A stretch of 20,000 bases of DNA, taken from IMG/VR virus record IMGVR_UViG_3300044825_002550; one strand, 5' to 3'. The position numbers were made by a program, and so were the translations under genes. The notes below the pieces were generated by a model. That model made no database searches, was not told where the DNA came from, and saw nothing but the letters and a program-made list of their open reading frames with translations. This DNA is from an uncultured virus (IMG/VR IMGVR_UViG_3300044825_002550). Its lineage: Duplodnaviria > Heunggongvirae > Uroviricota > Caudoviricetes. This document shows positions 336-20,000 of the stretch, piece by piece. Positions within the stretch are counted from its first letter, which is position 1; each line of letters begins with the position of its first letter.

Positions 336-2132
336 ATGTCTATTAAGAATAAAGGGTTTGACCTTGATGGATTTCTTGATGATTTAGCTGATAGTATCCA
401 AGATGAGTTTGGTGCCGCAACTGAAGAGTTTAATATTGTAGACTTTGTAGAGAATCAAATAGATAAAGTTAGCTGGGGCGTTAAAGAATTAAACCCCCGT
501 CAATGGGTTCTTCTTAAAACTTTTTATAGCCTCCCTTTATCTGACGACGAAATCTCTATACTCGAGGCTTGGTACGCTCTTGACCGTACCTCCCTTAACC
601 CTATTTCTAATTACCCCCCTCAACAACCTTTCCAAGCTCTTATTGTTGAAGCTGGTCGTAGAGGTAGTAAAAGCTTTACCGCTTCTATTATTGTCGCCTT
701 TGAGTTCTGTAGACTCTGTCTTATGAAATCTCCCCAACTCTACTACGGTATTGCTACCTCTACCCCTATTTCTATCTACTGTATCGCTACTAGTGCTACT
801 CAAACTAAACGTACTATATTCGCTCAAGCAAAAGCTTTACTTGAGCACATACCTGCTATAAAAAGGTTAGTTGATAGAAAGAAAGTAATTATAGGCGAAG
901 AAGAAATAAAGTACCCTGATAAGTTGTTATATATATACAGCGGTAACTCAAATTCAGCTTCTCAGGTCGGCTCTTCTGTTATTTGCTTAGTTATGGATGA
1001 AGTGGCTAGATTTGATGACGAAGGTAAAGATAATGATGAAAGCAATGCTCTCCAATTATGGTCAAATATTGGTATCTCTGGTGTAACTTTTGGTAAAGAT
1101 GCTAAACGCATCGCTATTAGTTCCGCTTGGTGTGATGGCGATGCTATACAAAAGCTGTACAGTCTTACTAAAGAGTCTCCCGGTACTTTAGGCTTTAGGT
1201 TACGTTCTTGGGATTTAAACCCCGTACACGCCGCTAGAGACAATCCTGTAGTTCAATCTGAATATTTGTTAGACCCTAGAAAAGCTGCTCTTGAATTTGA
1301 AGGTATTCGCTTTAATAAAGCTTACTCTTTCTTTACTGATGATGATATACAAAAAGCTTTTAGAGGCTCTACTTCTATCTCTGTCTCTAAATTAAAATCT
1401 CCTGATTCTATTGTTCGCCTTCAAATTGATGATATTCTACCTACTATTAACGGTAGCGTTATGCACTTAGACCCAGCTTTCGTTCGTGATAGCTATGCCA
1501 TCGCATTTGGTCATAGAGAAACTATTAAAGGTGATAGGTTTGCTATTATTGATGGTCTTCTTGTCTGGGAACCTGATGTTAACCAACAAGTTGGTATAAC
1601 TAATATTTATAAATGCATTTATGAAATACATAACCGCCGCCCTCTATCTAAAATAACTTCTGACCACTATAACCCCGAAACCGTTCAACATCTTAGAAAT
1701 AATGGCCTAAACGCTTCCGTTATTACTTTCTCTCAAGGTAAACAACTTGAATTGTACGACTTCTTTAGAAAAATGCTTCATGAGGAGCGTGTTATTCTAC
1801 CTAATAACTCCCCTTGGTCTTCTAAGCTAAAAGATGAGCTTTTTGGTATACAATTAATAAAGGGTAAAAAGATTGATCATAGGCGAGACGGTTCTAAAGA
1901 CATCGCAGATGCTTGTGTAGCCGTAGTGTGGCATCTAATGTCAGACTTTAATTTAACAGCAACTCCTGTTAGTAACTCCGTAAAACCTACTCAACCTATA
2001 CCTTTTAAAGATGATTTAGCAGATTTAGGATTCTCTTCAGCTAAAGAGTTAGTAACTCAAGTTAAAAGATCTTATTCTAAATGGGATTCTAAATATCTTA
2101 GCGAACCTTCCTGGCTCTCTGATGATATTTAG
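336..2132 (+). CDS. terL: Phage terminase large subunit (DNA packaging ATPase-nuclease)
   Basis: Terminase-type Walker A 'AGRRGSKS' (651-674), post-Walker-A 'IATSATQTKRTIF', Walker B 'CLVMDEVARF' (~984-1013), coupling motif 'AISSA', RNase H-like nuclease acidic motifs 'MHLDPAFVRDSYAIAFGH' (from 1461), 'ITSDHY' and C-terminal 'IDHRRDGSKDIADAC'. Length (598 aa) is typical. Confidence 0.92.
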   Translation: MSIKNKGFDLDGFLDDLADSIQDEFGAATEEFNIVDFVENQIDKVSWGVKELNPRQWVLLKTFYSLPLSDDEISILEAWYALDRTSLNPISNYPPQQPFQALIVEAGRRGSKSFTASIIVAFEFCRLCLMKSPQLYYGIATSTPISIYCIATSATQTKRTIFAQAKALLEHIPAIKRLVDRKKVIIGEEEIKYPDKLLYIYSGNSNSASQVGSSVICLVMDEVARFDDEGKDNDESNALQLWSNIGISGVTFGKDAKRIAISSAWCDGDAIQKLYSLTKESPGTLGFRLRSWDLNPVHAARDNPVVQSEYLLDPRKAALEFEGIRFNKAYSFFTDDDIQKAFRGSTSISVSKLKSPDSIVRLQIDDILPTINGSVMHLDPAFVRDSYAIAFGHRETIKGDRFAIIDGLLVWEPDVNQQVGITNIYKCIYEIHNRRPLSKITSDHYNPETVQHLRNNGLNASVITFSQGKQLELYDFFRKMLHEERVILPNNSPWSSKLKDELFGIQLIKGKKIDHRRDGSKDIADACVAVVWHLMSDFNLTATPVSNSVKPTQPIPFKDDLADLGFSSAKELVTQVKRSYSKWDSKYLSEPSWLSDDI

Positions 2133-2245: not shown

Positions 2246-3109
2246 ATGTTAACAAAACACCAGATTGATAGGTTTAACTCCTGCCATAGCCTACATTTCT
2301 CTCTCTCCCCTATTACCCTTTTTATGGGGCATAACAACACAGGTAAATCATCTATCCTTAGACATATTTATTATAAACGTAACGCAGAACATGTTCTTTA
2401 TCTTAACTCCCGCCGCGCTATTATTCCTAACTATTACTACCTTAAAGACCCTATCACTTTCTTAGCCGGCATTAATGGTCAGTATATCTATCCTTTCTTT
2501 ATAGCTCTTAAAAAAAGTGTCCCTAACTTTGAAGCTACTCTCTCTAAAACTCTCTCTGATCTTAATCTTGTTCAATCTATATCGTTAAAACAATCTACTA
2601 CTAAACCTAATAAGTATAAGATTATTGCTAAAACGTTTGATGGCTTTAAAGTTGAGGTTAATAAACTTGGTACTTCTGTTAACTCCATTCTACAATTACT
2701 AATCTTATTAGAATTTGTTAGTAACGATACTACTTTGGCTCTTGATAACCCTGATGCTGGCTTAGACCCTCAATTACAAGTAGCTCTAGCTGATATATTA
2801 ATAGATTACTATAAAACTAAAAACTTACAGTTTTTAGTGGAAACTAACAGCATTAACTTTCTTAGAAGATTTCAACGAAGGATAGCAGAAGGCTCCTACT
2901 ATAACACTAAGTTTAAAGTATATAACGTTTACTTAGACAATAATTACAAAACTAAGCTAACTACAGCACTTGTAGATGAGGAAGGAAATATAAGTAACTG
3001 GGACGATATACTAGGAGATTCCTCTACAGCAATAGAGATAGAAGATTTAGATGCTATACTCCAAGCTAATATTCTAAAACAATTAGAAAGTACTAAAAAG
3101 CCAGAGTAG
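2246..3109 (+). CDS. ABC/AAA_21-family ATPase-like protein with DUF3696-like C-terminus; catalytic motifs degenerate
   Basis: N-terminal 'SPITLFMGHNNTGKSSIL' Walker A (2327-2350); signature-like 'LGTSVNSILQLL'; Walker B/D-loop 'TTLALDNPDAGLDPQLQ' (core 2741-2770); H-loop position 'FLVETNS' (VETNS at 2837-2851); then 'LRRFQRRIAE' and 'VDEEGNISNW', which I recognise as typical of AAA ATPases ending in DUF3696. Confidence 0.8.
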   Translation: MLTKHQIDRFNSCHSLHFSLSPITLFMGHNNTGKSSILRHIYYKRNAEHVLYLNSRRAIIPNYYYLKDPITFLAGINGQYIYPFFIALKKSVPNFEATLSKTLSDLNLVQSISLKQSTTKPNKYKIIAKTFDGFKVEVNKLGTSVNSILQLLILLEFVSNDTTLALDNPDAGLDPQLQVALADILIDYYKTKNLQFLVETNSINFLRRFQRRIAEGSYYNTKFKVYNVYLDNNYKTKLTTALVDEEGNISNWDDILGDSSTAIEIEDLDAILQANILKQLESTKKPE

Positions 3110-3139: not shown

Positions 3140-3170
3140 AAAGGTAGCCGCGCGGCTACCTTTTTAATTT
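3140..3170 (+). terminator. Intrinsic (rho-independent) terminator, possibly partly bidirectional
   Basis: Perfect 24-bp palindrome AAAGGTAGCCGC/GCGGCTACCTTT (3140-3163) running into TTTTTAATTT (3161-3170), about 30 nt after the ATPase stop codon. It is a GC-rich stem in an AT-rich intergenic region. Confidence 0.8.
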
Positions 3171-3295
3171 CTCTTACTTTTTCCTATACGTTAGTTTAGC
3201 TATTACTTTCTAGCCCCTCTCCTCCCTCTCTCCTTCCATCTCTTTTAACCTCTAATACTATCTTTTCTTCTACCCTCTAATACTTTCTTCCCTCT

Positions 3296-3862
3296 ATGTC
3301 TAATACTAATCTTTTTTATAATCCTGTCCTACCTTTAACTTATAGCCCTATTGCTTTAGAACTAGTCTCTGCTTATAAACTTAACGAGGTAACCCCGACT
3401 ATTGACTTTACTAAGTATTCTCTTTATATCCAACCACCTCGTTCTTCTCGCCCTTCTATTCAACACTACCTCCCTCAACCTTTTCGCATTCAATTCCCTT
3501 CAAACGGTATTCTTAAACTAGAACTTGTCCCCTCTGATATTTACCTTCCTATTGGGCGCTACCATGTCTCTTACTATAAAGAAGATGTCTCTAAACCACT
3601 TGATAAACAAGTTTGGATTGTTCGTAGCCGCCCTCTTATCTCTTCCTATTCTTTCTTGCTTAATACTAACCCCTACTCCCTTCCCCTCACTTTCTGGGAC
3701 GTTCTCTCAGTTAACTCCTCTTCCTCTTTCTCTTATGAGAATAATATGCTTAATGTCTTCTCTGACAACCTTCTTAATACTATCATCAATATCACATTTC
3801 AACCAGCTCTAACTGTCGACCAGTTGGTTGAATATAACATAAATACACTACCAAATAATTAA
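3296..3862 (+). CDS. Hypothetical protein, possibly beta-rich virion structural protein
   Basis: 188-aa ORF with the same T-ending codon bias as its neighbours, filling the gap between the terminator and the giant ORF. The segment 'GILKLELVPSDIYLPIGRYHVSY' looks like beta-strand modules of phage tail proteins, but no family could be named. Confidence 0.7.
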   Translation: MSNTNLFYNPVLPLTYSPIALELVSAYKLNEVTPTIDFTKYSLYIQPPRSSRPSIQHYLPQPFRIQFPSNGILKLELVPSDIYLPIGRYHVSYYKEDVSKPLDKQVWIVRSRPLISSYSFLLNTNPYSLPLTFWDVLSVNSSSSFSYENNMLNVFSDNLLNTIINITFQPALTVDQLVEYNINTLPNN

Positions 3863-3918: not shown

Positions 3919-6900
3919 ATGGAGTTAGAGTCTTTAGAACAGAATAGAAGGTCTTCATTTAGTTTAGCTGATACAGCTCAAACACTTTACCCTTCTATTA
4001 GTAATCCTTCTTCTTTAAGTTCTTTCTCCTCTTTTACCTCTAATAACCCTCAACTTTCTCTTTTTAATAATTCCTCTATATTACTAGCTTCAAATACCTC
4101 TTTAGCTTCTACTTCTACTAATACTACACCTAAACCTTTCGGCACTCTCTTAGATAAAAAACATACATTTTATAATTCACGGGACATAGGTAAAGGCTTA
4201 ATGGGATTTTTAGAAGAGTCTAAACCTAATAGTTTAAAAGGTGCTTTTTACGAACTATCCTCAAACCCACAGTTTCTTAAAGTCTTTTCTGAAAAAGCTA
4301 AAGACGATGGAATTGTTGTTTCTATGGGACCCGGTAATGTCTCTTTAACCGAGAGTATGGTAGAAAGTTCATCTATAGCACTAAACTCTATTCTGAGTCT
4401 TAAAATTATAGGTGCTTTTAATTCCGGCGTAGGAGAAATAATAAACTATGCATCTGAAAAACTTACCGGTAACCCTATATATAAAACCTCTGAAGAGCAG
4501 AAACAAAGTACAGAAAGCGTCAACACCGCTCGATTTGTTAATTCTTTGCAATATGGTTTATTAGGATACTTAGCAGAACCTGTTGTTTCTAATTCTATAA
4601 ACCTTTTCTCTACTACCCCTAAGTCAGGTTCTTTTAAACCAGGTAGTTTTGGTAGAAAGGCTTTAGTCTCTCTCTTTGTTGGTAGTCTTGGCTATGTGTT
4701 TTCTCCTACTACTATAGACTCTACACATCTTTCTGAGCTAAATACAGCTCGTATGCGCTTTATACCTAATTCAGCTTTAAAAGCTTATGGTTTAACTGTT
4801 GGCACGGATTCTGATACTCCACAACCTTCAAGAGGCAATTGGTTTCATCACGCAGTTGCTATGTTCTCTAGAACTTTTCTTTTAGGTGGTGTTGATGTTA
4901 CTAATAAAACTATACCTTATGCTGTAGAATATAGTAAGAACTCTTCTAACCAAAATCAGGTTAGTAATTATATTGTTCACTCTAAATTCTTTGTAGAAGA
5001 AGAAGGTCGCTCAGACCGTTATTTTGTGTCCACAGGTAATCTTAATACTTTAGTTGAAGTCTATAATACCCCGGCCGATAAACGACATAAACAAATTAAC
5101 TATGCTATCTCCGGTAATGACCCCCAAATCGCAAAAGACCTTAGAGAGGTAGCTACTTTTTTAGCTACCGCACAACCTTCTGATACCTTTTTACCTTTAC
5201 AGGAAAAACTTACTTCTAAGAAAGTAAGTATTGGAGGTATGGGCAGTAATTCTACACAAGAAATTATTAACTTGATACAGGAATCTAAAGGCGAAATATA
5301 CGGGGTTATGCCCTATGCAACGGACTCAGACATAGCTAACGCTTTTGTTACAGCTCAAAAACAGGGTAAAAAAGTCTCTATTTTTATTAAAAACCCCCTC
5401 GGTGTAGATGGCCAACAACAAAGCTCTAACTTTGCTAGAATTTTACTAGAAGGTGGTGTTGATGTACTAATAGTTCCAGAAAATTCTAAGGCTTTTCCCC
5501 ACGCTAAAGTTATTGCTTCTAAAGATACTCTTCACCTTGGTAGTCATAACTTCAGTAAAAACTCATCACGACATGTTGCTGAAGTTAGTTTACAGTTTAG
5601 ATCTTCAGGTATTGGTATACCCGTTATAGATGCTATAAAACAGGATATAAAGGACGACAAGGCAATCACCCTAAATAAAACTAAACTAGAAACTTTAATT
5701 AACCAAGCCGCATTAAATAAAGATTACTCAGCGCTTCGCTTATACAAAGCTATGTATCCAGAGGGGGATATAAAAGAAGCTCAAACAAGAATATCGACAA
5801 AGAATGATTTAGTTCAGTTTCTTATGCCAGATATGTTGTCTATTGGTGGCGTATTAAATAATAAGCTTAACTCCAGCGCTGTCTTTCTTCCTACTTCTAT
5901 TCCTACTGAGTACTACTCTCGTCATGGGTTTAACCTTAATAATACGCCTGATATCTACCAACATCTAAGGTACGGGTTGGATAAACAATCTTCATTGGAA
6001 AAATTCTCAGCTTTCTATGCTGATTTTGCTTTACAACACCCTTTTTCTATTGGTCTTGGTGCTTATATTAATGCTGGATTTCCTAACCTCTATAAACCTA
6101 ATGATGGTTTATTCTCTACTATTAGCAAAGGCGTAGGCCGATTCTTAGATACTCTAACTGGTCATTATACTAACATGTATTACAAAGACCTAAGAGCTGG
6201 TCTAGTTTATGGTAATATGAAAGACTTTCATAAAGCTGCTTATCGTAAAGATGACAGGCGCGGTTTCTTTGAAAGTACTTTATATACTTTTAGCTCTGCT
6301 ATGTCTAGCACTGCTTATTCCCTTGCTTTTTACTTTGGGATAACTCATAGTATCGCTATTGCCCGCGCTAAATTTGAAGATATAGGTACTGATTATATAT
6401 CTCAACTTGACTTTCAAAAAACTCCTAAGTTTATACAAAAAGTATACTTTGATGATACTACTATAAGTCGCTTGAATGTAATAAATGATGTAACTCAGGC
6501 CTTAAAAACCTCTCCTAATCCTGCACAATTAGGTAAAGTCCTAGATGAGTACTATAACTATATTATTAATGAAGCAGCTTCGACGCCCCTTTCTTTAGAC
6601 TCTGAAATTAAATCTCAGTTTGATACATTCAAAGTATCAAGTGACATTATAGATAAAGATATTAATCTAGTAAGAAATGCAATATCTACCGGCTCCTTAG
6701 ACCCCTCTGATTTAAACTCCATTGCTACTTTTAAAAAATCAACTTTTGGGGTGGATAGCACTCAAATTACTTTTAATACCTTGAGTAATCGCCCCGCCCT
6801 TTTTAATACTGTTAGCTTTCTAAGAAATATTGATAGCTCCCATTTTACTAACATCATTGAACCTATTATACGAGATATAGCTGTATACGAAGACGTTGAC

Positions 6901-9900
6901 AAAACCCTGTTTGAAAATACTTTAAGTAAATTAAAACAAAATATATCTGGGGGTATCAGTTTAATCTTTAAAAGCAACGACATCTATAATGACATTCTTA
7001 ATGTACATAACTTTGGTTATAAACGTCTGGAAGAAATAGCCAGTCAACTAGACACGTTAGCCAGTTTTATCCCTGCTAATCCTTTTCTATACTACAAACC
7101 TTATAGACAAGCTCGGGGTGTAACTACCCTTAAACAACAAAATATTACCCCAAGCGGCCAGATTATTCAAGATAGTATATCCCTTAAAAGCCTAATCGGT
7201 CCCGGCTTCTCTGGCTTGACTTCCTTTACTAATCAAGTTCTACAACAAGTAAAAGAAGTTAAATTAGATAAGTTTATATCAGAAAGCTATAATGCTTTTA
7301 CCCTACAGAACAAACTTATTAAAAATGAAGTCAAAATCGCTAGGAGAATAGATAAACTCTTAAGAAATGTAGACCCAGGTCTATTACAAGATTTAACTGA
7401 CTTAAGTAAGGGAACTTTATCAAGTCCTCTAAAAGACCTTTCAGATAATCTAAAAAATCAGCTAGGAGCAGATATTGCGGACTTGCTAGATGACCCAAAA
7501 TTACAAAGCTTAGTTGACCAATACCTTATAGATTATGAGAAGTTTTCGACAACAACAAAGTTTTATAGTAATGACTCTATAGATAAAATTAAAGATAATA
7601 GCAATAAAGGTTTAAATAAGACTTTACGTTCTGTACTTTTTTCGGCTGGTCCTATTCTTATCTTAGATAAGTTGTTAGACCCTCATGTAATGCAAAACAG
7701 CGGCGATTTAATATCTCAAATCTTTGCTGATTTTAACCTCACCCGCACTAAGGACGAAAACCGTGTAAGCCAAATAGAGTTTACTGGCGGTATACCTTTC
7801 TACTTGAAATACCCTATCATTCTATCTGGTTTTATTACCGGCGGCTACGCTTTACCTTCTCGTAAATCTACTTATAGCGCTGTCTCTCGATTAAACGCTA
7901 CTTTACAAGCACGTTACCAAAATGTTGACCTCTCTACTTTAGGTGTTACAGACTCTCTATTAAGAACTGCAGAAAAAGAACTACGTGCCGCTGCTTCTGC
8001 TGCTTCTTCTTCAACTCCAGATCTTGATAGTAACATAGCTAAATATTTATTTAGCGACCGAGGAGATAGACTAAGGTTAAAGTTCGGCTATATGGGCGCT
8101 TTTTTAGGAGGCTCCGCAGCACTTATCGCTACACAAACAGTATTTAATCTCACTGCAGCTACTCTAAACTTTATAAAATCCGTTGATAGAGGAGAAGGCC
8201 AAAAGCCTAGTTCTGAAGAGATGGCAGCAGGCCTAAAAGTTATGAGCATTATTAAAAGGTCTTTAACTACACAAAAAACCTCAAATAAAGCTACTGTTGA
8301 TGAAATTGCTTCAAGGGAAGTCTTGCGTTTAGGAGCTCTTAACCTGACTTACGGAAGGGATAAACGCCCATCTTATATCTATACCTTCTCTAGTCAAATC
8401 CCAACACCGTTATTTCAAGCTACTTTAGTTAGTAAATTTGATAAACAAGGTAGTGCTCTTACTTATGGCTTGGGTTTTCAGTTTGTTCCTATTCTCGGTT
8501 CAGGCTCTATTCCTACTGCTCCTTTTAGTATTAGTGTAAGACCTTTACGCAATACTGTAGAGGCTAAACGGGAACTATATAAAAAGTCTCTCTTATCCTT
8601 AGCTTCACCTTCATCTACCTCTGTTGACCAACTTAAACAGCAGTATGAACAACAAATGCAAATTGCTGGGTTTTTCTCTTTGTTGTCTTTTCCTGGACAA
8701 TTTTTATCTGTTGATAAAGATACTACTTTAGGTTCTGCTATAAACTTTTTAGGTGCTACTTCTTATATTTCTACTCTTGCTTCTAAACTACCTAAATCTA
8801 TAAGCTCCTCAGACAGAACTTTTAGATATCTTACTGCTTTTTCTTTTGACACTATCCGTAATCTTGTAGGCTATAGCCAATCTTTAACGGTAGCCCTGCC
8901 CAATGCTTTTCTTAAAGCTGGCACTTCTTTATTAGGCGACTCTTATATAAAAGCTATTGGCCCTAAAGCACGTAAATTTTCTCCTTTTATCCTTTCTTAT
9001 ATGTATGCTTCCGGTATTACTGCACCTGAAGGTTCTTTTTCTAACGTAGGTTCCCAATTTATAAACCCTGTAGTTAGCGAGATACACAGATTTTTTACAG
9101 CAGTAGCCCCAATAACATTAATTTACGGTTTTGGTTTACACCACGCTAAAGTCTTTAGCCGCGCTCAAGATATTAACCCCTCTGATACAGCTACTGATTT
9201 TATATCTACCAAACAAAAAGAAATTAAAAAGATCTATGAGCAAGCTACAAAGTCTCTTGACCCTTCTTTACTTAAAAACTACGAGCTACCTCTAATAAGA
9301 ACAGCTAATTTACGCCTTAATATTGCTGCTCGCCGTATTTTCTCTATTAGTGCTATACTCGGCGCGGTTGGTCTTTTGGTAAACTCTACTAACTCACAAA
9401 ATTTTAGATTTGGATTCCTTGATATTATTTCTGATTCTCAAATTAAACAGCTTAGCCCTACAGAACGCATTCTACAATCTAACTATTCTTCTGCGCGCTA
9501 TAACCCCTCCTCTTCTAGCGAAGCTTTTTCTTCTTACGCTGATTACCTTACCCGCTCTCTTCTAGGTATCTTTGGTGTACAAAACCTGTTTTATAGAGAT
9601 GACCCTAACGCTTTCCTTTCTCTTGCAGGTCCTTTTGGTATTAGTGAAACTCAACCAAATAAACTTCGCGGCTATACTCAGGCTCAAAGCTCTTCTGCTG
9701 ATATCAGTGGCTCTAAGGTTACTCTTGCCGCTCAACTTGCTAGCTCCGATTTCTCTATGCAACTTAAAGCTATGCTATCAGAAGCTAGCTCTAAAGACGA
9801 AACTACTACACAACTCTTTCACCGTCTTTTTGCTTATCCTAGAAAAGAGCCCGCTAAACTTAGCCGTTATATCTCTCAAAGTGAATATGGATTAATTAGA

Positions 9901-12900
9901 AACAGCAGCCACGCTTTCCAAACTGCTATTACTATACGCGAATATCAACTACAACATCTTAAACATCAAAGACCTATTGAACTAGCTTATACCTTACTAA
10001 AAGAGCTCTACGCCTCCGGAAGAATTGACCAGGCTAATACACGTATACCTTTTAGCTATACTCCTCTGGATTCTCTCCCTAAAATGTATGCTACTGTAGG
10101 TACTAACTACTCTAATTCTTCTTTAAACTTAATTAGCAGAGTCACTTCACTTCTTAAAGGCTTTACTTCTAACTCACAAACCCCTATTGGTTTAGAAGAT
10201 ATTGCTGCGAAACAATACAAAGAAACAACCAGCCAAATACCTTTTTTAGGTTACTTTTTTGATACTTTTAAAGACGTTGCTAGTTCTCTATCTGGTAACT
10301 CCTCTATCTCTAGCGGCTTGGCTTTGGCTGTTCAATCTATTCCCCTTGCTACTTTTACACTTGGCGGTATTATTGCTGTCGGCTCTCAAACTCTAACTTC
10401 TCTCTATGCTATTCAAACAGGTAATGTCCTTAAATCTACTACTAATGAACTTAACACTGTTAGAACTAACTTAGAGCAAGTTTCAAAGATAAAATTCTCC
10501 TTTGACAGTTCATCTCAAAAGTTAAAACTTAATAATACTGTTATAAACAATTCTATTACTGATGTTCTTAATGAAACTCATCTTACTTCAGGTATACAAA
10601 ATGCTCACAATTCTCTATTCAATATTGACTTTATTGATAAAGAGATACAATCAGATATACGTGATGTTTCTAGACTTAAAAACCAGCTAAATACAACTTC
10701 TGACTTGGCTTTAAAACAAACTCTAACAGACGATATTAATACAAAAGCAAAACAGTTAACTGATAAGTTAAAAACCAAACTGACTGATTTCTTAGACACA
10801 GACGTTACTATCTCTACTACTCAGACAAAAAAAGTTTATGAGTTACTAGATATAACTGATGATATGAGAAATTTATTAGAAAACAAAGTTGATAGTATTC
10901 TGACTGAACTAACCTCTATTATAGATAGTACTCAGTTAGATGAGGTTTTGGACCCTCGCATAAAAAAGGCTTTAGGTTCTGCCTTATTACAACTACAAAA
11001 GGATATATATAGTCAAGCTAATTTACCTCCTGTACAAAAACCTAATCCTCAAACTAGTAGCTTGTCTTCAACTGTAGCCCGCGCTGATAAAACTGCTTCT
11101 ATTCCTGTCAAAAATCTTAACTCTATTATTCAACAACGCGGTATTACTGGCCTTGTTTTACAATCCTCTCAAGGCGCTTTTAGTCTAGCTTCTAAATTCC
11201 AAGATTTACATGGCCCTTATGAAGTCCTCTCTGGCTTAACTTTAGCTATCTCCTCTACTAACCGTCTTCAAAAATATCAGGGTGCTTACGCTGCTTCTTC
11301 TGGCTTAATAACTACAGCCGCCGCTTTTGCGGCTATGTTGGCTATTAACAGCTTTGGTGTTAGCGCCCTTCCTCTTATGATTGCTATGGGCCTTGGTGTT
11401 TGGGGCTTTACTTCTTGGGATTCTACTTTTAATAATAAACGCTTTACTAGATCAGCTTTATCTACTATGCTTGCTATAGATAAAGCAGTATTTGACCCTG
11501 TTCGCTACGGCACGGCTAACCTTTTATATAATCTCCCTACTATACCTTTTTTAGGCCCCATTTCTCACTTTCCCTTCTCTCTGTTTGACTCTTTTCTTAA
11601 TAACATTTACTCCTCTTCTTTTGTATCCGAAAACCCTAACGTTCAAATGGGTTTATCTTTCATTTTGCCAGAAACACCTCAACGGTATGACCTCTTTAGA
11701 ATGAGTAAAGTCCCTAACTCTTATACCTTTGCAGGCCCTAGACAAGAAATCCTCTCTTACGATGAATACCTTAAAACTATTGCTAGTAACTATCAACAAA
11801 ATGTACAACGCGCAGCTTCATACAAACCTAATATAGACCCTCTTGTTCATCCTTACCTTCAAGGATCCGTTTATACAGGTAATCCATTTGTAGATGAACC
11901 CTACCTCTCCCCCTCTCGGGGAGGTGGGCGCTCTCGTCTTTTATCTAAATTTGCTAACCCCCCAGCTATCTCTAATATCCTTCGTATTGCTATTGGACTT
12001 CGATCCTCTCAATCAGACTTTGACACTTATGGCGCATCTATTTACCGCTCTTATAATAAACCTAAAAACCCTCTTATAGGTTTTGGTCAGTCCGCCTTTC
12101 TTAACGCAGCGCGCGCTGGGTTTTTTCTTAATAACAATATCTTTAGCTTCTCTACCGAAACTATTTCTAAAGCTTCTAGCTTTATATCCAAACATCTCGT
12201 TGAACCGGCTGGCTCTTTTTTTGCTTCTCTTTATAAAAACCTTTACACTCAACGCGGCGCTACTTTTTTTAACAACCACTTGTCACCGGCTATTAAAGGG
12301 TCCTCTTTAGCAACTCTCATTATAAGTGGTATTGAATTTTATAACCCTAATACTGACCCTTTATCCCAAATTGGCATTGGTGTTCTTGGCAGCACCGCTT
12401 TTACTGTTATTGCTGACCGACTCCAAAAACATCTTCGTTCTAAGGCTTTAACTCCTAATACTGTATCCTCTTCTTCCTTTTTTGGTTCTACTTTTAGCTT
12501 TTTAAAAAGACCCATAACACAAGTTTTCGGTTTAGGTTTAGGTGCTTCTCTTTTAGCTCTTGGTTTGTTTACAACCCCTCAAAATAAAAATGATAAAAAC
12601 GCTCAAACTCTAAAAAATACCCTTCAAATCTCTGGGGGTATTCTTACTGCCGCTTCTGCTGTACCTCTTAGTATACGCCTGTTTAAATCTCTTCCTTTTA
12701 AGTCTTTGCCCCCTAATATTCTTAGGTTAGCACCCCGAACCCTTTTTGGCTTGGGTGTTGGATATTTTGCCTATAAAGGGTTTAATAGTATTAATCCTAA
12801 GCAAGAGGACCAACAGTTTAATATATTAGCTTCAGGTAGTATAGGTTTAGCGTCTTCTGTTTTTAGTCCTTCTATTCTTAAACTTTTTAAAAATAATCCA

Positions 12901-15900
12901 CGTATTGGTCTTTCTCTTCTTAGCACAGGCCTATTTACTGGCGTAGCACGCCTTGCTGTAAACAGATTTAAACCACAATCAAGCGAAAATGAGCAAATTA
13001 TAACCTCTTTAGCTGTGGGGGTAGGTATTACTGCTGTAGGTAATTTAGCTTTACCCCGTTTGATGGGCCTTTTCTCTAAGTTCTCTTCTTCTTCTTCTCC
13101 AAGCTTAGCTCCTTCTAGCACCAGCACTTCTAGGTCTTCTATTTTTATTGATACCTTAAAAAAGGTTGTTAAGCCAGCACTCACTTTTGGTCGTCGCGCC
13201 GCTGGGTTTTTTAGTAACTTTATCCGCTTTTTAGGTAACCCCGCTTTACTCACTCTTATTGACTTTCAAATAACTTTTGGTAATATTGAACGTCTTAATA
13301 ATCTTGAAAAACATAAACGAGATAGAGTAAACTACCGCTCCGAGTACTCTACCGCTATCGGCGCTGCAGCAAGCTCTTTGGCATTTACTGCTTCCTATTC
13401 TGCTATCTCTAAGTTCGGCGGCTCTAATTATAAAACTCTTTTTGCTTCATTTATTATTTCAAGTATTGTTGGTCTTTTTGCTTCTCACTTAGGTAAACAA
13501 TTCGGCGACGCAGCTTACTACGAATCAAGAGGAATGCAAGATAAATATTCTAATAATTGGGCGTATAACTTCTCTAAGTTTATTTTCCCATCCTCTAAAG
13601 CTAATGCTAACGATAATAATCTTGCATCCCCTTCTTCCTATACTAAAGACGCGGTTAATAATATTCTTTTAACTACATTTGTTATTAATAATCTTTTTAA
13701 TTTATGGATGGGAGTTAGAAATTGGAAATCTGTAGCTAAAGCCTCTTCTACACTTGGCTCTACCCCCGGCCCTGTCCCCGGTGACGACGGAGATATCCCA
13801 GGTAGCTCTACTCCTCCTACGGGCCCCGGTGACGACGGAGATATCCCAGGTAGCTCTACTCCTCCTACGGGCCCCGGTGACGCCGCTGATAGCTCCCGTA
13901 GACGCTACCACCGCCGCCGCTACGGCCCCCGTAGCGCCTCTAGTAGCAGCGGTGCTAGCTTCTTTAAAAGAGCCAGTAGTCGCCCTAGTAGCAGCGGTGG
14001 CTCCGGCCCTGTCCCCGGTGATGACGCTGATAGCTCCCGTAGACGCTACCGCCGCCGCCGCTACGGCCCCCGTAGCGCCTCTAGTAGCAGCGGTGCTAGC
14101 TTCTTTAAAAGAGCCAGTAGTCGCCCTAGTAGCGGCGGTGGATCTTTCCCTGGGTTCGACGTTGGCGTTGCCCCCAAGGTCGAAGACCTTGAGTCTTTTA
14201 CTTCCTCTACTCCTAATAGTAAATTAAAGATTAAATATTTAGAAACAGATAGACTTAAAGGTACAACTATTGCGTCTCAAACTGTTAATTCTGCCGATGA
14301 AGTTTATAATAAACTAACTACTAAATACAGTTCTAGTTTGGATGGCAAACAATATGACAAGCTATCTGATATAGTTAAAGAAAAACTGACCCCTAGTGTT
14401 ATTCATGGGGGTAATGAATTTGTTACTATGGGGTATGTAGATACAACTGGTAATTACAGCGCGCTTTCTGTCTCATATCAAGATACTAAGAGTGGCAGAA
14501 TTGTAACCAAAATCTTTTACGCTGAAGGTACAGATAAATCCGTTATGGATTCTCTTATAAAAGAAAGCGGCGTAGATACTAAAAAAGACTGGCGGTCTTT
14601 TACTCACACATCCCCAGATTTTAAAACCGTTGATTTTACCCCCTCTTCCCCTCTTCAACCTTCTAGTGCACAACCTCCTACCCGTAGTATCCTAGTATTA
14701 GAAGAAGGTAAAGGTATACAAGAACTTAATAATAAGGCTTTCCAACATAGTAGTAACCTAAAACTTGGTTATGTTCATTGGATTCATAACCTATCTAGAA
14801 ATAATATAAATTTGGATATAGAAAAAAAATCCGCCGGGGCTGTTTTTTCTCCTTTAAAAGGGTTTGGTCAACAGCTTAGCTTACTTATACATCAAACTCT
14901 TCATCTAGATAGCTTTTACAAACCTTTTAGTATACCTAACACACCTAACACGGGACCACACCCCCCAAAATCGGGGGCGCCAGCTACAGCCAGTAAAACA
15001 GGTATACCGGAACCACCTCCACCCCCAAAACGGGCGCCAGCTACAACCAGTAAAACACTTATACCGGAACCACCTCCACAAGAAGTAAAAACCATACAAA
15101 GTGCTAGCAAACTGCAGCCCGGCGCTTCTATTAACATAGATAACCTTCGTATCGATGAGTTTAGTACTGGAATAAAGCTTGTCCCGGGTAAAGGGTTTGT
15201 AGGAGGTAAAGAAACAGAGTTTGTATCTGCGGGTTTTACAGGGGAATTTGAAAAGTCAACTCTAACACCGGAAGATCATTCAAAAATACTAGGACAAGGT
15301 AGTAAATTTAATGAGTCAATTTTAACCGTTAAACCCGACGCGGTAAACCAGTTAGGAATTTCATCAGAAGACAAAGTTAGCCCTATACTTACAGGCACAG
15401 TTGTAGAAATAGATGGAGAACAACGAGCTTTTCTATCTGTTTCTTCTGCCTTTAAAGACGAATCGGGTAGATCAAGCGCTGGGGCTAGAATATTTACTGC
15501 AAAAGGTGGTAATGAGTCTTTATTAGCTTTAGTAAACTATTGGGAAGAACACGGAAATCCATCTTTTGAAATGAACCCTAGTAGAGCACCACAACCTGTT
15601 TTTTACAATACTACTGTATCTTTAGATTTAGTTTCGTACTCTTCAGTCCCTAATAGTAATCTTTTAAACCCGGGTACTCTTACAGTAAAACAAGCTGCAA
15701 GTGAGAGTTTTTTACTAGCAGAGAGTACGGGTAATTTAGCTTCTTTTGAGTATAACGCTGCACCTTTAAGTTTATCAAGAATAGCCAAAGCTCAATTTAT
15801 ACAACCAATAAACACGAAATCATATCTGATTATAAGTAAGGACCAAAAAAAAGTAAAACCTATACATTACTACAAAAACTTCACAGAAATTAAGACTAGC

Positions 15901-18900
15901 TTAAATGCTATTTTAAACAGAGCAATTCCTAAAGAGCAAGACATTACATTTTTCAAGTCCGAAATTGCTAAGAATCCAAACTTAAAACAAGACATCTTAC
16001 CACTACTTGAAGATCAGGGACTAGACCAAATTAAGAAGGAGTTTAAAAAAACTACTGTTAAAAGCCAATTGGCTTTTAGTACAAAGCATATTAATTTACT
16101 ATCTTTCTATAACGAGATTACTTCAGAAACTGAATTTAAGGATTCTTATTCTGACTACGTTACAAAAGCTAACCAGAATGCTGGAGGTTTATCTAAAGAA
16201 GCTAAAGACAACGCGCGCGCTATGAAAACGTGGCAAGATACATACAATAAATTTAGCGGCGGCGGCGGCGGTCCTAGTAGTAGTACATTTACAGGCGAGT
16301 TTGGTGCTGAACAAGATCCTACGTTGTCTTGGCTAGATAACTACGATGATAGTAGGTCTATACACGCAACGCTAATACCTTTTGATTTTCAGTATTTTAA
16401 TAAACAATTTAGGTCGCTATTAAGTTTTGGAAAACAAAAGATAGCTCCTGGCATTATTTCAGTCTCTTCTTCTGCTTACTCTTTCTTCTCTGACCTATCT
16501 AAATCTTCTTTTAGCTCAATCCGTGCTGCCTCTAATAAAGTCTCTTCTATCTTTAAACCAAGTCCTCGTCTTTCTGTTTCTTACACTGCACCTCGTCCTT
16601 CTCCAACTTATAGACCCAAACCTTTTGGTGTTCTTCGCTCTCGCTCTCATAACTTATTTAGACGATTCTATAGACCTACTCCTTCCGTCCCTAAAGCTCC
16701 TCCTACTCCTAACTCTAATATTAGTATTCAAAAAGGTGGTGTATTAACTGGGCTAAGTATTTTTGCTCTTAGTACCCTTCTTATAAACGACAAAGACCAA
16801 AACTCTCAAGCTCTTAGAACAACCCTTCAAATAGGTGGCGGCATGTTAGCTGTTACTTCTCTTTTAGCTCCGCTTTTGCAAAATAAGTATGTGCAACGGT
16901 CTTTAGACTCTGTAGGCTATCTTTTCTTTGTTCATAACACTCTTCAAACTATCTCTTCTGTTCTTACTCTTAATAGAGAAGTCTCCTTAAAAAATGATAA
17001 CCCTCTTGTTTCAACTTATCGCCGTTTGGGTTTATTAGACCCACACAATGATTCTTATTATTATGATATCAAATCAGCTTCTAGAAGAATGGGGTCTACT
17101 TTAGTAGATATTATGGCTAGAGGTATAGACTCTATATTCTACCCAGCTAACTTTTTTCTAGGTATAGCTGTATCTTCATTAACTTCTTATTTTAGTGGAC
17201 CTGTAAAAGCTTTAGTAGGAGATTACCTAGAAAGTGAAATGCTTAAACATGGTATGTACAACGCTACCCCCCGAGCCCTTGCTAATTTATCCAAAGAAGC
17301 CGGTGAGGGCGCAATGGCAGGTGGCGCTATAGGGGCCGCCGCTAGTGTTTTAGCTCTTCTTGGACTAGGCGCCGCTAGTGCTTTGTCCGGCGGTACTGCT
17401 CTTCCTGCTACTGTCCCTGTTATGTTAGGTATTGTTGGTGGTAGCACTGCTGTAGGCGCCGGTAGTGGTTTTCTAATTAACTTCCATGCTGGCACTAATC
17501 GCTATAGCCAACAACGACGCATTTCCAGACTTAGATCTTATGCTATTCAAAACGCTATCGCTAGCTCCTACGCCTCTAATTCCGCTTCTAGTTCAGATAT
17601 CTACGATAATCAAGGTTTAGACCCCCAATTCTATCCGGGTAGTATCTCTTTTTCTAATTATGGACATAAGGATCCGTCCGGAGGTAATAAGGATCAGCAA
17701 TACAACATAAGCTCTTTTGCAGAAGCTTATCCCCACCATGCTGTATTTAGAAGAAAGCGCAGTCAATCTCTTTTTTATGTAAACAGCCGAGGTGAAAAAG
17801 TACCTCATGAAGTACAAGAACATATAGGACCAGACGGTACTACACGCGAATTTGTAAAGCTAGATATTACTCTTCGTAAGGGCGGCCGTATGATAGGTGT
17901 TGAATTGCCTAGCTTTGCTACTGGTTATGCAAAAGTAGTCAGTGCGGGTAAAAACTCTTATGTGAGTATATATAAAGATCGGGAGATGACAAAATTTCTA
18001 GGTAGGGCGATACATATACGAGCTACAGTACGTACAGGGCAAAAGGTTTTCTTTGGGCAGATAATAGGTACACAATATCCAGATGGGGATAACACTCATA
18101 CTGACTTAACTCTTTTACCAGAAACTTATGACCGCTATTTTAAGGCTTTAAAAACTGGAAATTGGGGTAATAACTTACCCCCCGCTCTAATTCCACCACC
18201 TTCTGCACAACCTCAAAACCAATCTACTTCAACTGTTACTCAAGGACGTAACCTTTTAACACCAGAACTATATAATAGGCTTACACCTAAAGGTAAGCTG
18301 TATTACGACAATCTTAGAACTAATCCGGCTATACTTGCCCTTGCAGATGCTGTAGCGCGCGCGGAGGGGACCGATTTTAGGAATAACTCTGTAAATTTTG
18401 GATATGGATATATTATTGGGGGCTCTAACATTGAACTATCTAAACTTAATAATATACAACACCCTTTTGTAGCTCCAGCTGGGCATACTCCTTTACGACG
18501 TAGAGCGGACCACCTGTCTACGGCATCGGGTAGATATCAAGCTTTAGATTTTGTTTATGCAAGAGTAGCAAGTATGAACCATAATGCCCCAGACTTAGCT
18601 AAAATGTTTGAAGGTGTAGACCGCCGCATACCTATAAACTCTTTTTCTCCAGGTGTCCAAGATTTAATGTTTATTTACTCTCTTGAAAAGCGGGGTATAC
18701 TACAGGATGTAATTGATGGAAACTTCTCAGAGGCTGTTCTTGATAAACTATCCAGAGAATATACTAGTATTACTATTACTAGAAATTATGGGGGGCATGG
18801 AACTCCTGAAGGTAGGAAAAATAATTTCATTAGGTTCTTAATGGACAGATACAGAATTCGTCAAGCAGAACAGCTTAGGTCTAAAACACCAAATACTAAT

Positions 18901-19438: not shown

Positions 19439-20000
19439 AGCGCGCGCTGCTTGTAGCTCTTTATATATACTACTTTTGGACAAACTCTTAGCAGCTGCGC
19501 GTAGCCTGCGCGCTGCTTGTAACTCTTTATATATACTATTTTAGACGGAGGTTAAGCTGCGCTCTGGTACTCGCTACGTAGCCTGCGCGCTGCTGCTAAG
19601 AGGTTGTCCAAATATTTCTTTCTACTTTATATATACTATTTTTGGACGGAGGTTAAGCCGCGCTCCGGTACTCGCTACGTAGCCTGCGCTCTGCTGTAGC
19701 GTTGTCCAAATCTTTCTTTCTACTTTATATATACTATTTTTGGACGGAGGGTAAGCCACGCTCCGGTACTCGCTGCGTAGCCTGCGCGCTGCTTGTAGCG
19801 TTGTCCAAATATTTCTTTCTACTTTATATATACTATTTTTGGACGGAGGTTAAGCCGCGCTCCGGTACTCGCTGCGTAGCCTGCGCGCTGCTTGTAACTC
19901 TTTATATATACTATTTTAGACGGAGGTTAAGCTGCGCTCTGGTACTCGCTACGTAGCCTGCGCGCTGCTGCTAAGAGGTTGTCCAAATATTTCTTTCTAC
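19439..20000. repeat. Non-coding tandem repeat array of ~66-100 bp modular, palindrome-rich units; continues beyond the window
   Basis: The anchor CTTTATATATACTA starts at 19459, 19525, 19625, 19723, 19822 and 19900 (spacings 66, 100, 98, 99, 78), and the next is expected at 20000. Full unit is approximately CTTTATATATACTATTTTTGGACGGAGGTTAAGCCGCGCTCCGGTACTCGCT(A/G)CGTAGCCTGCGCGCTGCTTGTAGCGTTGTCCAAATATTTCTTTCTA. Confidence 0.95.

Follow-up and report, generated by a model that had tools for sequence, protein, structure and literature searches.

Why would a phage keep, directly behind its terminase gene, a shortened ATPase from a bacterial defence family, and keep it without an effector? The gene lies in a 20,000-nt stretch of the uncultured virus record IMGVR_UViG_3300044825_002550 (the window, meaning the whole stretch of DNA analysed), and its product is referred to here as P0001. 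The original prediction, made from the letters of the window, was that P0001 is an apparently hydrolysis-dead copy of a defence-type ATPase that could serve as a decoy or dominant-negative anti-defence protein. Our best explanation, which we hold tentatively, is that P0001 would act as a trigger-blind antitoxin decoy against the defence system HEC-03. Taken together, the anti-defence readings (a decoy that holds the PIN protein and a poison of ATPase oligomers) are on balance probable, if only just.

The locus and its virus

The window belongs to a 59.6-kb virus record with an estimated completeness of 45%. A freshwater cyanobacterial host is likely, because the terL and capsid sequences best match those of Microcoleus and Microcystis phages. 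In a near-identical relative, the major capsid protein shares 30–32% identity with those of the My-WqHQDG/Ma-LMM01 group, the sole 10 records matched. Spacer-like host matches occurred in 0/5 and 9/401 cyanobacterial genomes; all were short and imperfect (E ~1e-4 to 1e-3) and were treated as chance. The main features around the gene are:

336..2132, plus strand: terL (terminase large subunit), sharing 33–35% identity with its counterparts in Microcoleus phage My-WqHQDG and Microcystis phage Ma-LMM01
2246..3109, plus strand: gene of P0001, a HEC-03-type (DUF3696-family) ABC ATPase of 287 aa, with an intact ORF and an internal deletion
3140..3173, plus strand: intrinsic-terminator-like hairpin (3140–3163, 10-bp stem) and T run
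3296..3862, plus strand: conserved 188-aa gene, weakly like Ma-LMM01 gp119 (E 4e-4)

The intact ORF with the motifs GHNNTGKSS, LALDNP and VETNS was borne out, as was its location between terL and a terminator. The gap between terL and the ATPase gene is 113 bp here and about 40 bp in loci L003 and L005. A near-identical terminator hairpin is present in all six related loci listed, and the order terL, ATPase, terminator, 188-aa-type gene and (where reached) giant gene recurs in 6/6 IMG/VR loci and in one metagenome contig. The 188-aa gene gave no PIN, Pfam or PADLOC match. Expression data from three runs comprised three contigs of 150–186 nt in all.

Several further observations concern the genomes around this locus. 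The ORF at 3919–19434 encodes 5171 aa; a PLD-like domain lies close to the N-terminus, and GC-rich repeats occur at 13757–14152. In a relative with 99.7% identity in terL, the N-terminal part of this ORF shows only about 65% identity. At the other end of the contig, the opposite strand bears a second giant ORF (>3700 aa), for which a weak PLD match was obtained in the relative. Behind the giant gene, a degenerate tandem repeat array with a unit of ~99 bp occupies 19442–20000 and continues to the contig end. A subclade-2 relative encodes ArdA-like (L108:13897-14961; a weak match, E 1.5e-4, below the cut-off), spore photoproduct lyase-like (L108:4070-5110), ferritin-like (L109:15808-16260) and serine recombinase (L109:16920-18395) proteins.

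P0001 has the ABC/SMC head fold with a Walker A motif that typifies the ABC ATPase superfamily; the phage copies lack the catalytic Glu after Walker B (DN/EN instead) and the H-loop His (N/Q instead). The profile search proposed in the original prediction returned both AAA_15 (E 1.6e-12) and AAA_21 (E 2.4e-8), each passing its cut-off. An alignment-based AF2 model reached a pLDDT of 89.2, and its top VIA match was a chain of the retron Ec83 complex (Z 16.3, rmsd 3.5, 234 aligned), with PtuA (Z 15.4, rmsd 3.3, 225 aligned) and a PARIS complex chain (Z 13.1, rmsd 3.6, 207 aligned) also matched. A PDB sequence search with P0001 gave weak ABC/Rad50 matches (best E 0.005), and an ESM Atlas search gave generic AAA_15/AAA_21 clusters.

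Relationship to the HEC-03 ATPases

Homology searches returned short relatives (six 90% clusters with 42 members of 271–289 aa, 52–99% identical) and long relatives, mostly of 410–500 aa, with about 30% identity to P0001. A PIN gene lies directly downstream of the ATPase in 79/80 cellular loci of the long relatives. This was also the case in 22 of 23 loci outside the profile-building set, the sole miss sitting at a contig end, and the three downstream PINs that were tested all match the PADLOC HEC-03 partner model. HEC-03 is a two-gene system, composed of an ABC ATPase and a PIN RNase, that defends E. coli and requires both genes; a beta-sheet extension, Insert 1, is a feature of its ATPase (Payne et al., bioRxiv 10.1101/2024.01.29.577857). 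The paper names the ATPase HEC-03A, and the labels of PDLC04147/PDLC04148 in PADLOC-DB 2.0.0 are swapped relative to the preprint, so that HEC-03B of PADLOC is the ATPase and HEC-03A the PIN.

PADLOC ranks HEC-03 first for P0001 (E 3e-30), ahead of NsnB (7e-28) and PDC-M55A (4e-21). Against two profiles built from 28 ATPases each, the phage proteins score 116–140 bits for the HEC-03 type, a set picked by likeness to P0001, and 43–48 bits for the NsnB type. Cyanobacterial HEC-03 ATPases that were located through their PIN genes, and were found independently of likeness to P0001, gave BLAST scores of 94–100 bits (6/7 among the matches listed; one scored 61) against 31–44 for NsnB types. Judged by these comparisons, the parent of P0001 is a HEC-03 ATPase, other than Septu PtuA, PARIS AriA or Gabija GajA. 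The defence-type origin proposed in the original prediction is thereby upheld; these three proteins were the examples of antiphage ATPases that it gave.

Over its C-terminal two thirds, P0001 is about 30% identical to HEC-03 ATPases, and it shares with them an RRFQRRIAE helix, an R at the Q-loop position, a non-Glu Walker B and a DUF3696-like tail. Unlike them, it is without some 160 aa of Insert 1 and without the signature Gly and the His residues of the H-loop and D-loop. It carries a basic hairpin, and its gene, with no PIN gene beside it, lies in a phage morphogenesis region. The beta-sheet extension of a full Insert 1 is missing from P0001, and in place of a PIN gene directly downstream, its locus has the terminator and the 188-aa non-PIN gene. 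Without a PIN partner or Insert 1, P0001 is not part of the HEC-03 system, yet it clearly descends from the ATPase of that system.

Menshen NsnB resembles P0001 in its AAA_15 and DUF3696 type, in an Asn at the catalytic position and in an effector modelled between two tails; it is reported to have an EN dyad, with R in place of the Q motif and GxG in place of SGG (PMC12065111). Unlike a Menshen locus, that of P0001 has no NsnA or NsnC nearby: the NsnB type is not its nearest family (43–48 against 116–140 bits), and its neighbours are terL and the 188-aa gene, which has no PADLOC match, and not DUF262 NsnA/NsnC. PARIS AriA and Septu PtuA share the ABC/SMC-type fold and are distant in sequence (PADLOC E 1.6e-12 and 5e-7, against 3e-30 for HEC-03). 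AriA, unlike P0001, has the catalytic Glu (E393), and its defence requires hydrolysis (10.1101/2024.01.02.573835).

The four best genome matches to P0001 are cyanobacteria. A HEC-03-type PIN is found in 9/401 cyanobacterial genomes, three of these being partial or weak matches, and DUF3696 proteins in 61/401. A cyanobacterial donor was considered and set aside: in a quick tree of 73 rows, for which a motif filter had removed 13/80 loci (including L027 and L028), the six phage rows form one very long branch of odd composition without a resolved sister.

Changes in the phage copies

The positions compared between phage and cellular proteins are:

2327..2353, plus strand: Walker A GHNNTGKSS, residues 28–36; G28, G33, K34 and S36 invariant in 36 phage rows
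2366..2389, plus strand: junction of the missing Insert 1; median cellular insertions of 18 and 144 aa after residues 39 and 41
2414..2416, plus strand: R57 in the position of the Q-loop; family trait found in both phage subclades
2576..2668, plus strand: Insert-2 beta-hairpin, residues 111–141, with seven invariant Lys
2666..2686, plus strand: signature motif, residues 141–147; cellular VGFGVSQ, phage LG[TDN][SA]V[NT]S
2735..2770, plus strand: Walker B and D-loop, residues 164–175; LALDNP at 164–169, DN/EN dyad, HLH changed to GLD/SLD
2837..2851, plus strand: H-loop VETNS, residues 198–202; His changed to Asn (subclade 1) or Gln (subclade 2)
2975..3094, plus strand: DUF3696-like tail, residues 244–283; PIN-binding surface in the model and least conserved region

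The shortness of the protein, with little between Walker A and the signature, is confirmed by the spacing of Walker A and Walker B, which is 128–129 aa in the phage copies against a median of 304 in the 147 relatives where both motifs were parsed. It reflects a deletion of about 160 aa, corresponding to Insert 1, behind the Walker A helix of P0001 (after residues 39–41).

The Walker B dyad was parsed in 163 of the 169 longer relatives (P0008–P0176) as EQ 138, EH 14, EE 4, DQ 2, EN 2, ED 2 and EY 1; counts from 80 genome loci were discarded, as the scan pattern itself required EQ/EN/EH. The catalytic Glu is absent in 159/163 of these cellular relatives, with Gln there in 140/163. By this count, the Walker B Asn of P0001 is no phage-made knockout, the parent family being already without Glu. 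The original prediction had taken the Asn as a replacement of the family's catalytic Glu, which only 4/163 relatives have, and its "two targeted catalytic changes" are reduced by the one that the parent family had already undergone. It had also named active closest cellular homologs that naturally carry DN/ETNS as a point that would refute it; this applies in part, at Walker B, because the Glu is missing in most cellular relatives, and does not extend to the H-loop, where the His is kept in 163/163.

The H-loop change is phage-specific, as Asn or Gln stands in place of the universal His in 7/7 phage rows. Compared with 129 cellular rows, the phage copies replace His201 (100% in cellular rows) by Asn/Gln, His172 (98%) and His174 (100%) by Gly/Ser and Asp, Gly144 (99%) by Ser/Ala in both subclades and Gln147 by Ser, and have lost Glu203. 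This further erosion of the catalytic motifs, which takes in the D-loop His and the signature Gly, supports the reading of an impaired ATPase. Walker A, R57, Q178, D183, E199, R208, R212, G247 and N251 are retained. Loss of the H-loop His and the Walker B Glu impairs ABC ATPases. Low or no ATP hydrolysis is plausible for P0001 and possible for its cellular parent. In most of the HEC-03-type ATPases (P0008–P0176), a natural Gln or His occupies the catalytic Walker B position, a change that is used experimentally to stop hydrolysis.

Two other regions of the phage copies have changed in character. Across 14 phage rows, the net charge of the hairpin is +4 to +6; in 129 cellular rows, the median is −1 and values run from −5 to +4. 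Where the phage copies have the seven Lys, the cellular proteins have mostly acidic or mixed residues. At 77% identity between subclades, the hairpin is the best-kept region of the protein; a best-window permutation test gave no significance for its clustering (p 0.058). These features point to a new nucleic-acid-binding or partner-binding surface. The tail (residues 244–287) is 18% identical between subclades, with 3/44 positions invariant in 14 rows. Residues P253, F255 and F256 of the cellular proteins are lost in both subclades, W252 is also gone from subclade 2, and the helix after about residue 271 is missing there. The combination of a weakly kept tail and a strongly kept basic hairpin leaves room for a role other than anti-defence.

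Insertion history and selection

The ATPase occupies the slot between terL and the conserved gene in all seven phage loci with full flanks, even at about 47% identity. In a wider terL scan of 46 loci, the ATPase was within the flank, among the loci listed, only in the six with terL at least 68% identical. At least 12 outgroup loci (L136-L144, L146, L163, L173; terL 42–62% identical) have a homolog of the 188-aa gene directly after terL, and in Ma-LMM01 and My-WqHQDG terL is followed by a weakly similar gene with no ATPase between. Among seven relatives that are at least 90% complete, six had no ATPase match and the seventh had a 47-position match (E 4e-4). A tblastn search of 50,697 phage records with P0001 gave no match. 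Because these outgroup loci are without the ATPase, its gene is a clade-specific insertion, an old one that has since been fixed. The original prediction of an inserted accessory gene thus stands as regards insertion relative to the outgroups, and fails as regards accessory status: the gene is fixed in the clade and its GC3 (0.274) matches that of the genome (0.265 and 0.328 in the flanking genes).

In L145, a relative, another gene (5643-6209) fills the slot behind terL; it runs on the opposite strand and encodes 189 aa with a P-loop-like start, so the slot takes insertions. Between L004 and L005, the ATPase is 96% and the next gene 91% identical, against 81% for terL and 57% for baseplate J; it looks as if this two-gene block had recently been exchanged among phage lineages. 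The terL ORFs of L135, L142-L144, L163, L169, L171 and L173 have 739–1672 aa against about 595 aa, which suggests inteins or other insertions.

Purifying selection was assessed by the Nei-Gojobori method in four within-subclade pairs, which gave dN/dS values of 0.157, 0.087 (a pair with dS 1.7), 0.056 and 0.031; between-subclade values (0.27–0.42) were not relied on, as dS exceeds 1. The ATPase gene has no stop codons in seven loci, and 36 phage proteins are alignable at full or near-full length. The check for neutral decay that the original prediction had proposed therefore speaks for a maintained gene: with low dN/dS and no stops, neutral decay is rejected. Across subclades, identity is 52% for the ATPase, 68% for terL and 43–46% for baseplate J.

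As had been predicted, no partner nuclease is nearby: no PIN was found among the neighbours, and no HEC-03 PIN in the own record (1/1; 45% complete) or in the related partial genomes (5/5; 23–59% complete). In cultured temperate phages, the family occurs at full length with a downstream gene in 3/3 regions examined.

Possible functions

For the proposed decoy, the following course of events may be envisaged. The ancestor of one cyanophage-like myovirus clade would have taken the ATPase gene of a HEC-03 system and left its PIN gene; comparison of the sequences shows that the gene was placed behind terL and shortened. P0001 probably still binds ATP and dimerises. Because Insert 1 and further catalytic-site residues are lost, it should ignore the trigger of the host ATPase, and its dimer is predicted to clamp the PIN of a host HEC-03 system with the two C-terminal tails. 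Alternatively, P0001 may enter host ATPase oligomers; either way, the defence would be blunted.

An ATPase that holds a toxin has been demonstrated in PARIS, and toxin release in HEC-03 is proposed by analogy. The Walker B mutant E393Q of AriA is insensitive to Ocr and keeps holding AriB (10.1101/2024.01.02.573835). As terL of Ma-LMM01 is expressed with the middle genes (PMC5780444), a co-transcribed ATPase would not come too late for counter-defence. Phage antitoxin mimics are known, such as T4 Dmd and phiTE pseudo-ToxI (PMC10286901), which neutralise a host defence toxin as is proposed for P0001; unlike these, P0001 would be a shortened relative of the sensor ATPase that belongs to the targeted system itself. 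In the literature searched, which largely left subscription journals uncovered, we found no phage-encoded shortened HEC-03/DUF3696 ATPase and no anti-HEC-03 protein.

Co-folding of two P0001 copies, ATP and Mg with the HEC-03 PIN of Pseudanabaena gave a score of 0.61, against 0.01 for the best control; the pass mark was reached by 116/157 solved and 2/215 mismatched pairs, counts that are rough for this case. The runs share at least 92% of contacts, with a partner pLDDT of at least 84, and the interface is an asymmetric sandwich formed by residues 244–283 of both protomers. In the model of NsnB-NsnC, the effector likewise sits asymmetrically between two DUF3696 tails (PMC12065111). The pass perhaps reflects family likeness and not binding by the phage copy, as the ATPase alignment consisted mostly of cellular rows.

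Other evidence argues against the decoy. Of all parts of the protein, the modelled interface is conserved least, and it is truncated in subclade 2. Within subclade 1 (35/42 members; six fragments and one truncated row left out), 8/19 interface positions are invariant, against 182/287 overall. Fast change of the tail could mirror differing hosts at a host-facing surface. HEC-03 is rare (9/401), though the gene is fixed like the clade core, and the strongest new constraint is on the basic hairpin, which lies apart from where the model places the PIN.

That hairpin is central to the leading alternative, itself rather unlikely, namely that P0001 has been neofunctionalised as a phage factor, a compact ATP- and nucleic-acid-binding dimer that would help to process or package DNA alongside the co-transcribed terminase. 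The conservation and charge of the hairpin, with its seven invariant Lys, keep this alternative in contention; clustering at p 0.058 and an AT-rich genome, which would favour Lys codons, weigh on the other side. A fixed slot behind terL and before a conserved terminator, a divergence resembling that of structural genes and an eroding tail would all suit such a factor, and compact viral ABC ATPases of 191–300 aa head the viral fold search. Against it, related phages package their DNA without the ATPase (at least 12 loci; 6/7 near-complete relatives).

Less probable is that P0001 is a dominant-negative poison or trigger shield that would act on the oligomers of host DUF3696-type ATPases (HEC-03 or NsnB) through its core and not on the PIN. 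The core residues R57, Q178, D183, E199, R208, R212 and Y226 are retained in both subclades while His172, His174, His201 and G144 are lost, and the tail would be free to erode because the poison would act via the ATPase core. DUF3696 ATPases are also commoner than HEC-03 PINs (61 against 9 of 401 genomes). Identity, on the other hand, is only about 30% to HEC-03 ATPases and about 20–27%, over short stretches, to NsnB types. Sequestration of nucleotides, which the original prediction had also raised, finds no support here.

We consider it more doubtful still that P0001 belongs to a defence or toxin-antitoxin module carried by the phage, with an effector encoded where the genome has not been sequenced. 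The incompleteness of all the records searched would allow for one, and temperate phages carry complete Menshen-type systems, but the cellular PIN is adjacent in 79/80 loci, what comes after the ATPase here is a terminator and then an ancestral phage gene, and no PIN was found in 6/6 records. Finally, a decaying remnant without function, which the long branch and the loss of many family-invariant residues might suggest, is very improbable given dN/dS far below 1, the absence of stops in seven loci, the 36 full-length or near-full-length proteins and the confident fold.

Implications

Independently of the phage gene, the natural Glu-to-Gln change at Walker B raises the question of whether HEC-03 ATPases hydrolyse ATP. 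If P0001 has become a phage factor, it would represent the domestication of a defence protein into phage DNA handling. If the decoy reading is true, P0001 would be the first counter-defence against HEC-03 among the literature searched, and would serve as a probe for the mechanism of this system, in which the ATPase would hold the PIN via its tail and Insert 1 would sense infection. It would also mean that phages can convert the sensor ATPase of a defence system into an inhibitor once its sensing insert is deleted and its catalytic site frozen, a simple route to anti-defence that would consist of capturing the sensor, dropping the toxin and removing the sensing part.
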